From Escherichia coli (GTDB lineage Bacteria > Pseudomonadota > Gammaproteobacteria > Enterobacterales > Enterobacteriaceae), in the NCBI RefSeq assembly GCF_017348835.2, contig NZ_CP071375.1: a stretch of DNA of 64,000 bases; one strand, 5' to 3'. Numbering within the stretch: the stretch's first letter is position 1; every line of letters starts with the position of its first letter. Below are positions 40,948 to 41,340 of the stretch, one piece after another. Both the position numbers and the translations under genes were made by a program. The notes under the pieces were generated by a model. That model saw nothing but the letters and a program-made list of their open reading frames with translations, had not been told where the DNA came from and made no database searches.

Positions 40948-41340
40948 GCCTGATGCGACGCTGTTGTGTCTTATCAGGCCTACGAGTTCAGTGCTGTGTG
41001 TAGGTCGGATAAGGCGCTCACGCCGCATCCGACAATAACAGCATTGCCTGATGCGACGCTGCCGCGTCTTATCAGGCCTACGAGTTCGGTGCTGTGTAGG
41101 TCGGATAAGGCGTTCATGCCGCATCCGACAATAACAGCATTGCCTGATGCGACGCTGCCGCGTCTTATCAGGCCTACGAGTTCGGTGCTGTGTAGGTCGG
41201 ATAAGGCGTTCATGCCGCATCCGACAATAACAGCATTGCCTGATGCGACGCTTGCGCGTCTTATCAGGCCTACGAGTTCAGTGCTGTGTAGGTCGGATAA
41301 GGCGTTCACGCCGCATCCGGCAATAACAGCCTTGCCTGAC
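40948..41340. repeat. BIME-type tandem array of REP elements (about 4 units of 96-98 bp) between holC and pepA
   Basis: Unit gcctgatgcgacgctg…cgtcttatcaggcctacgagttc…gtaggtcggataaggcg…cgccgcatccgacaataacagcattgcc repeats head to tail with a few substitutions. Confidence 0.85.

Follow-up and report, generated by a model that had tools for sequence, protein, structure and literature searches.

A rare four-unit copy-number allele of the tandem repeat between pepA and holC of Escherichia coli, assigned to the BIME-2 class

Introduction

What kind of element is the tandem array of palindromes that separates pepA from holC in an Escherichia coli genome, how did it come to have its present length, and what could it do for the genes on either side of it? 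We asked this of a 64,000-nucleotide stretch of E. coli DNA (RefSeq assembly GCF_017348835.2, contig NZ_CP071375.1), called the window below, in which positions are counted from the first letter. In the BIME classification of Gilson, Bachellier and Hofnung, as restated by Ton-Hoang et al. 2012 (PMC3333891), a BIME-1 joins z1 and y in a single copy and its long linker L frequently contains an IHF site, whereas a BIME-2 joins z2 and y in multiple tandem copies with a short linker S. BIME-2 arrays, their copy-number polymorphism and their affinity for gyrase have been described since the 1990s, and the holC-pepA locus appears in published BIME-2 tables. The element class, its properties and the locus are already in the literature, and only the rare copy-number allele described here is new.

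Results

Position and genomic setting of the array

An array of about four BIME units between holC and pepA had been proposed from the letters of the window (the original prediction). Tandem Repeats Finder recovered it at 40948-41339 as a repeat of period 96 with 4.1 copies, 95% matches, no indels and a score of 682, and this was the sole long-period tandem array within the 64-kb window. The start-to-start spacing of the units is 98, 96 and 96. The array is wholly extragenic and lies in a 449-bp spacer (40896-41344) between the start of holC (40895) and the stop codon of pepA (41345), two genes that are co-directional. We identified pepA and holC from their translations and from the RefSeq annotation of matching loci; the RefSeq names for valS, holC and pepA agree in K-12 and in every matching genome. 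The arrangement is as follows.

41345-42856, minus strand: pepA, leucyl aminopeptidase, the upstream gene by transcription (stop codon 41345-41347)
40948-41321: the array proper, four tandem units that together hold eight full palindromes in the plus-strand order Z2-S-Y-l, repeated
40452-40895, minus strand: holC, chi subunit of DNA polymerase III, the downstream gene
37597-40452, minus strand: valS, valine-tRNA ligase, whose first base is the last base of holC

Several other features were observed in the window. Rfam Ysr276 (Yersinia sRNA 276, antisense type) matched at 42104-42298 on the plus strand with 175 bits, inside the pepA coding region and on the opposite strand. The probable cause of this match is the conserved coding sequence and not an sRNA. 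At 24277-24392 on the plus strand, just upstream of an 898-aa ORF (24486-27182), Rfam RF01056 gave a magnesium riboswitch with 126 bits, which looks like an mgtA leader. The tRNA-Leu (CAA) gene at 48313-48397 on the plus strand is followed by a variable island, 48400-52400, for which matching genomes have IS30, IS3 fragments and a protein with an AbiJ-NTD4 domain in their annotation; only 344 of 5,426 genomes share 80% or more of this 4-kb stretch. The intergenic region 32739-33882 holds three short A+T-rich tandem repeats, with periods of 15, 18 and 8, that are unrelated to the pepA-holC array.

Palindromes, linkers and partial units

Each unit had been said to contain two REP palindromes in opposite orientation, and we found eight palindromes in the spacer, four Z2 and four Y, which alternate in opposite orientation. 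The Z2 palindromes have the form GCCTGATGCGACGCT....GTCTTATCAGGCCTAC, start at 40948, 41046, 41142 and 41238, and all end in CTAC on the plus strand. The Y palindromes have the form GTAGGTCGGATAAGGCG....GCCGCATCCGRC, start at 41000, 41096, 41192 and 41288, and all begin with GTAG on the plus strand. The S linker of three of the units is GAGTTCRGTGCTGT, 14 nt long (41082-41095, 41178-41191 and 41274-41287); that of unit 1 has 16 nt with an extra GT, and this is the 2-bp excess length that had been noticed in the first unit. From holC towards pepA, the parts are these.

40926-40947: degenerate partial unit on the holC side, CGCATCAGGTATACACCGCAGC, with likeness to a Y tail plus the l linker
40948-40983, plus strand: Z2 unit a, in iREP orientation, ending in CTAC and with the loop variant GTTGTGT; it aligns with the Z2 of REP325
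40984-40999: S linker (head-to-head) of unit 1, GAGTTCAGTGCTGTGT
41000-41033, plus strand: Y unit a, in REP orientation, starting with GTAG; aligned with REP325
41034-41045: l linker (tail-to-tail), AATAACAGCATT, 12 nt, repeated at 41130-41141 and 41226-41237
41046-41141: middle unit b, with Z2b at 41046-41081, S, Yb at 41096-41129 and l; the 96 nt that follow have the same sequence
41142-41237: middle unit c, with Z2c at 41142-41177, S, Yc at 41192-41225 and l; it duplicates b exactly over 96 nt
41238-41321: last unit (Z2d 41238-41273, S, Yd 41288-41321), the first hairpin pair for a transcript leaving pepA
41322-41344: partial unit on the pepA side, which joins an l-like linker to 11 nt from the start of a Z2 (AATAACAGCCTT GCCTGACGCAA)

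The 74-nt repeat copy that starts at the partial unit on the holC side has 82% identity to the internal copies. Each palindrome is predicted to fold with -14 to -21 kcal/mol on either strand, and the spacer folded whole as pepA-sense RNA gave z = -11.2 against dinucleotide shuffles. We also observed that in 41082-41141, and in the equivalent part of each unit, the S and l linkers add a 6-bp inverted repeat (TGCTGT ... ACAGCA) around Y. This repeat lengthens the predicted Y hairpin across GTAG, and REP325 is without such a repeat.

Liang, Rudd and Deutscher are said to have found in 2015 that a REP hairpin within about 15 nt of a stop codon stalls ribosomes. The first full palindrome here is 23 nt (41322-41344) from the pepA stop codon, which is more than these roughly 15 nt, so that ribosome stalling by a stop-proximal REP is not expected.

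The array is assigned to BIME-2 rather than to BIME-1

Because Y and Z2 units in tandem copies with a short S linker fit the published criteria (PMC3333891), we assign the array, on the strength of its sequence, to BIME-2, the class of REP325/naRNA4. The original prediction gave neither this subclass nor the Rfam naRNA4 matches described below. Like other members of the family the array has Y and Z2 units that alternate in inverse orientation, GTAG and CTAC at the feet of the palindromes, an extragenic site and tandem copies that vary in number between strains. In length its linkers fit the family (S 14-16 nt, tail linker 12 nt, for which we borrow the label l from REP325 usage). Nothing of substance sets it apart, since locus-specific linkers are usual for BIME-2; the differences that we did see are the extra 6-bp inverted repeat around each Y and the four units, which make it the largest allele seen at this locus.

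REP325, in the yjdM-yjdN spacer of K-12, is likewise a BIME-2 between co-directional genes, matches the same Rfam model and consists of six 100-bp units. The Y and Z2 units of the window align column for column with these six, and the linkers alone differ. However, the array in the window is inverted relative to transcription, and the functional data for a terminator and stabiliser belong to REP325 only.

The original prediction had also stated that such arrays bind IHF, wording that implies an IHF-binding element of the BIME-1, RIB or RIP kind. This part did not hold. The array shares with those elements the Y palindrome and the extragenic site, and it is a general statement that some BIMEs bind IHF; from the sequence we found nothing in favor. 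IHF binds the long L linker of the single-copy BIME-1, which joins Y to Z1 (PMC3333891). Here the palindromes are Y and Z2 with no Z1, there is no L linker, the linkers have only 12-16 nt and the unit is tandemly repeated. Moreover, a search of both strands of the spacer (40896-41344) that allowed one mismatch did not find the IHF consensus WATCAANNNNTTR, and the six exact matches to it in the window all lie outside the spacer. We therefore rejected an IHF site in the array and consider an IHF-binding element very improbable.

Open reading frames and Rfam matches across the array

It had been predicted that the array would produce spurious repetitive ORFs on both strands, and we found three.

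40966-41361, plus strand: spurious repetitive ORF, 131 aa
40930-41220, minus strand: spurious repetitive ORF
40980-41309, minus strand: spurious repetitive ORF

If these ORFs (131, 109 or 96 aa) were real, the repeats would encode a repetitive protein. ORFs of 96-131 aa do cross the array on both strands, but they are open simultaneously on both strands and in several frames, as expected of a by-product of stop-free G+C-rich repeats. In a Pfam scan of the three ORFs no family reached its gathering score, the best being DUF4027 with 22.6 bits against a cut-off of 25. In addition, strains differ in ORF length by whole units, and 26% of genomes lack the ORFs. A protein-coding role has, in our judgement, next to no probability. 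The near-match to DUF4027, a family of 36 residues, came from the ORF at 40980-41309 on the minus strand and suggests that this 'family' may itself derive from translated REP sequences.

The Rfam model RF02564 (naRNA4) matched the plus strand at 41003-41078, 41099-41174 and 41195-41270 with 76-82 bits, above the gathering score of 59.5, whereas the pepA-sense strand scored 51-56 bits, under the gathering score. Relative to pepA and holC, the three high-scoring matches are antisense. REP325 matches on the strand of its genes, and for this reason we describe the array as inverted relative to transcription when compared with REP325. Two further Y-l-Z2 pairs in the window match the model, at 7915-7993 and 14156-14233, both on the plus strand, with 67 and 86 bits.

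The authors of the REP325 work describe a linker l between Y and Z2 motifs, and naRNA4 was proposed to condense the nucleoid. A 2026 preprint co-authored by the senior author of the original report disputes this role (10.64898/2026.03.23.713779). It saw no effect of REP325 or naRNA4 on the nucleoid and about 1-2 transcripts in each cell; in the yjdM-yjdN operon it found that REP325 terminates transcription in a partly Rho-dependent manner and stabilises the upstream mRNA, and it reports large variance and context dependence of REP effects.

The three plus-strand matches could be taken to mean that the units are genes for naRNA4-like sRNAs that bind HU and condense the nucleoid, as first proposed for REP325. 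However, the matching strand is antisense here, while the naRNA4 orientation of REP325 is the transcribed one, and a crude consensus scan of 40400-43200 found no promoter-like site on the plus strand that would feed the array. The model is a Y-l-Z2 unit built on REP325 units and flags BIME-2-type pairs in general. Since the two other pairs in the window match it as well and no promoter-like site of the plus strand feeds the array, we interpret the RF02564 matches as DNA repeat homology and not as sRNA genes. Together with the low transcript number and the lack of a nucleoid effect in the preprint, this makes naRNA4-like genes at this site highly unlikely.

Copy number among E. coli strains

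Copy number had been predicted to vary between strains, and comparison of unit numbers among E. coli genomes bore this out, with 0, 1, 2, 3 or 4 units at the locus. A BIME allele is present in 4,018-4,019 of 5,426 complete E. coli genomes (74%), and 1,405 (26%) carry a no-BIME allele. We took the unit census from two systematic samples of the ranking, 118 rows in all, sized by flank-to-flank distance: 53 rows had three units, 26 had two, nine had one, 30 had no BIME and none had four. Among the BIME carriers in the two samples, about 60% have three units, about 30% two and about 10% one. A ranking built to lift four-unit alleles gave a single genome with four units among the matches listed, LT2-3, although four-unit alleles below about 97% identity, or alleles of at least five units, could have escaped it. 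Four units are the largest number seen at the pepA-holC site. Representative alleles are as follows.

95NR1: no REP, spacer of 132 bp
K-12 MG1655: one unit, spacer of 159 bp
HeN100 and UTI89: two units, spacer of 257 bp
O145 RM9872: three units, spacer of 353 bp
S6: three units, spacer of 355 bp
The window: four units, spacer of 449 bp

We found that an exact duplication of the 96-bp middle unit is all that sets the spacer of the window apart from that of RM9872; deletion of any 96-bp register between 41022 and 41157 gives the RM9872 spacer exactly. The flanks of the two differ at four of about 1,150 flanking positions. Since the middle units are identical, the match to RM9872 minus 96 bp is exact and the flanks are nearly identical, the window allele is best read as a very recent one-unit expansion of the common three-unit allele. 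In LT2-3 both middle units carry the same private C-to-T change and the last Z2 differs, so that its fourth unit is most simply explained by a separate duplication.

The single unit of K-12 consists of the first Z2 joined to the last S-Y, and the middle unit of S6 is chimeric. As judged from their composition, these two alleles look like the products expected from recombination in unit register, and gains, losses and chimeras of whole units connect the alleles of one, two, three and four units. Copy number would then shift in whole-unit steps by slippage, by unequal recombination between units or by the REP-associated transposase TnpA(REP), which cleaves and recombines BIMEs in vitro. Units of 96 bp are also prone to collapse or expansion during assembly.

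In place of a BIME, the 1,405 no-BIME genomes have a 132-bp spacer, read directly in 95NR1, with the palindrome CCCTCACCC..CCCTCTCCC..GGGAGAGGG..GGGTGAGG. This palindrome may belong to the 'boxC' family. The 132-bp spacer was single-copy at the megablast level, and we name the alternative E. coli allele by its sequence rather than by that label. In NZ_CP104206.1 (strain hubt-sl) an IS4-like element, ISVsa5, interrupts pepA beside a no-BIME spacer.

Gyrase cleavage at the locus

The statement that BIME arrays bind gyrase agrees with published data both for the class and for the K-12 allele of this very locus. Gyrase cleavage sites have been mapped at single-nucleotide resolution by Topo-Seq, and cleavage is over-represented in BIME-2, more in y than in z2 and independently of transcription (Sutormin et al. 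2018, PMC6379681). Table DS3 of that study lists the BIMEs2 element 4490136-4490219, of 83 bp, at <holC-<pepA. The number of cleavage sites in this element was two with ciprofloxacin (Cfx), one with rifampicin plus ciprofloxacin (RifCfx), zero with microcin (Micro) and two with oxolinic acid (Oxo) (PMC6379681).

The K-12 element has the same locus, flanks and orientation as the array in the window, and its unit corresponds to Z2a, the 14-nt S and Yd of that array. It differs in having one unit in a 159-bp spacer as compared with four units in 449 bp, and the gyrase data are from K-12 only. Cleavage is thus directly supported for the one-unit allele, and by analogy the four-unit allele would be cleaved as well, with the Y palindromes as the preferred sites of gyrase binding and cleavage.

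Transcription through the array

A consensus scan of 40400-43200 found neither a sigma-70-like promoter nor a hairpin-plus-T-run terminator between pepA and holC. The scan found no terminator-like site on the minus strand of 40400-43200, and the sole terminator-like match was on the plus strand inside pepA. The palindromes run into linkers and not into T-runs, unlike an intrinsic (Rho-independent) terminator. The promoter scan was a crude consensus match, and holC may have a promoter that lies within pepA or within the conserved leader described below. A literature search on a pepA-holC-valS transcription unit returned nothing relevant. Because pepA and holC are co-directional with no promoter-like or intrinsic-terminator-like site between them, the array is most likely transcribed from pepA as its 3' UTR. 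A promoter-like site was also seen inside holC, at 40579-40550 on the minus strand, and could serve valS independently.

In such a transcript the eight stable hairpins, which are without U-tracts, would bar 3'-to-5' exonucleases and so protect the pepA message. The same hairpins would partly attenuate read-through into holC-valS, in part via Rho. We infer this RNA role from the analogy with REP325 and from genome-wide trends that the 2026 preprint calls context-dependent. Because the array is opposite to REP325 relative to transcription, the analogy assumes that the effect is independent of orientation. Furthermore, since 26% of genomes lack the BIME and one to four units are tolerated beside holC-valS, any such effect must be dispensable, small or replaceable by another palindrome.

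The spacer across Enterobacteriaceae

We scanned one genome per species with a protein-guided search and obtained 80 loci, 77 of them with a long enough flank. pepA was directly upstream of holC in all 77 Enterobacteriaceae species. A BIME-2 in the same place and orientation was found in five other Escherichia lineages.

Lineage labelled E. coli SCPM-O-B-8794: four units, 455-bp spacer
E. albertii: three units
E. whittamii: two units
Escherichia sp. E1V33: two units
Escherichia sp. MOD1-EC7003: one unit

The spacers of other genera have 62-314 bp and are filled by other palindromic repeats. Those of S. enterica arizonae and Kosakonia (Kosakonia pseudosacchari) contain what we take, by eye and from its likeness to the ERIC consensus, to be an ERIC-like element. 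Palindromes of the CCCTCTCCC/GGGAGAGGG kind, sometimes in tandem, were seen in Pseudocitrobacter, Enterobacter, Phytobacter and others; altogether, a palindrome of the 95NR1 type occupies the site in ten other Enterobacteriaceae loci, again sometimes in tandem. Superficieibacter has its own REP arrays, and some other genera have a single hairpin. Counting the presumed ERIC-like element, at least four unrelated palindromic families (BIME-2, ERIC, the CCCTCTCCC/GGGAGAGGG palindromes and species-specific REPs) are found at this site across the 77 species, and all of them end at the following element.

40896-40923, minus strand: holC leader, sense TTTAAATCCACCACAAGAAGCCCCATAT, 28 nt, 85-100% conserved in nearly all of the 77 species

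Outside this leader the spacer is hypervariable. Candidate roles for the leader are ribosome binding, a weak -10 element of a promoter or the tail of a terminator. Despite their different repeat families, all 77 spacers contain a local hairpin that folds at -19 kcal/mol or below, and the fold z-score against shuffles was below -2 in 73 of them. Because some strong hairpin is universally present, the pattern suggests that a structure, though no particular sequence, is wanted and maintained at the pepA-holC spacer.

The main rival to any functional account takes the array for near-neutral selfish DNA: REP/BIME units seeded at this site would have grown and shrunk in number through slippage or TnpA(REP) with no selected function here, and gyrase and hairpin effects would be incidental. 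We give this substantial weight and regard it as a real, if minority, possibility. It fits the absence of the BIME from 1,405 of 5,426 genomes, a copy number that runs from one to four without visible constraint, and expansions that look recurrent and recent, as seen from the identical middle units and the apparently separate duplication in LT2-3. The variance and context dependence of REP effects stressed by the preprint also agree with it. However, neutrality does not readily accommodate the BIME-2 that E. albertii, E. whittamii and three other Escherichia lineages have at the same site and with the same orientation, nor a strong hairpin in the spacer of every species despite the change of repeat family. 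In addition, the BIME-less E. coli carry another palindrome, and gyrase cleavage has been measured at the K-12 allele.

Discussion

We hold with high confidence that the repeat is a BIME-2 lying in the 449-bp pepA-holC spacer, with roles for gyrase, RNA hairpins and change by whole units that we infer from related elements and alleles. By analogy with REP325 and with the K-12 allele, the most likely roles are a gyrase site in the DNA and a block of hairpins that would protect the 3' end of pepA mRNA and damp read-through into holC-valS.

For annotation, the array is a source of false ORFs and, on the non-transcribed strand, of false gene calls from the Rfam 'naRNA4' model; annotators should suppress both.

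The strains provide a natural series of alleles with 0, 1, 2, 3 or 4 units directly upstream of holC-valS, which could test whether the number of REPs tunes read-through. More tentatively, the spacer may require a strong RNA or DNA hairpin while its sequence is free, with the unit number (one to four) acting as a strain-specific dial on read-through from pepA to holC and valS. We consider this doubtful.
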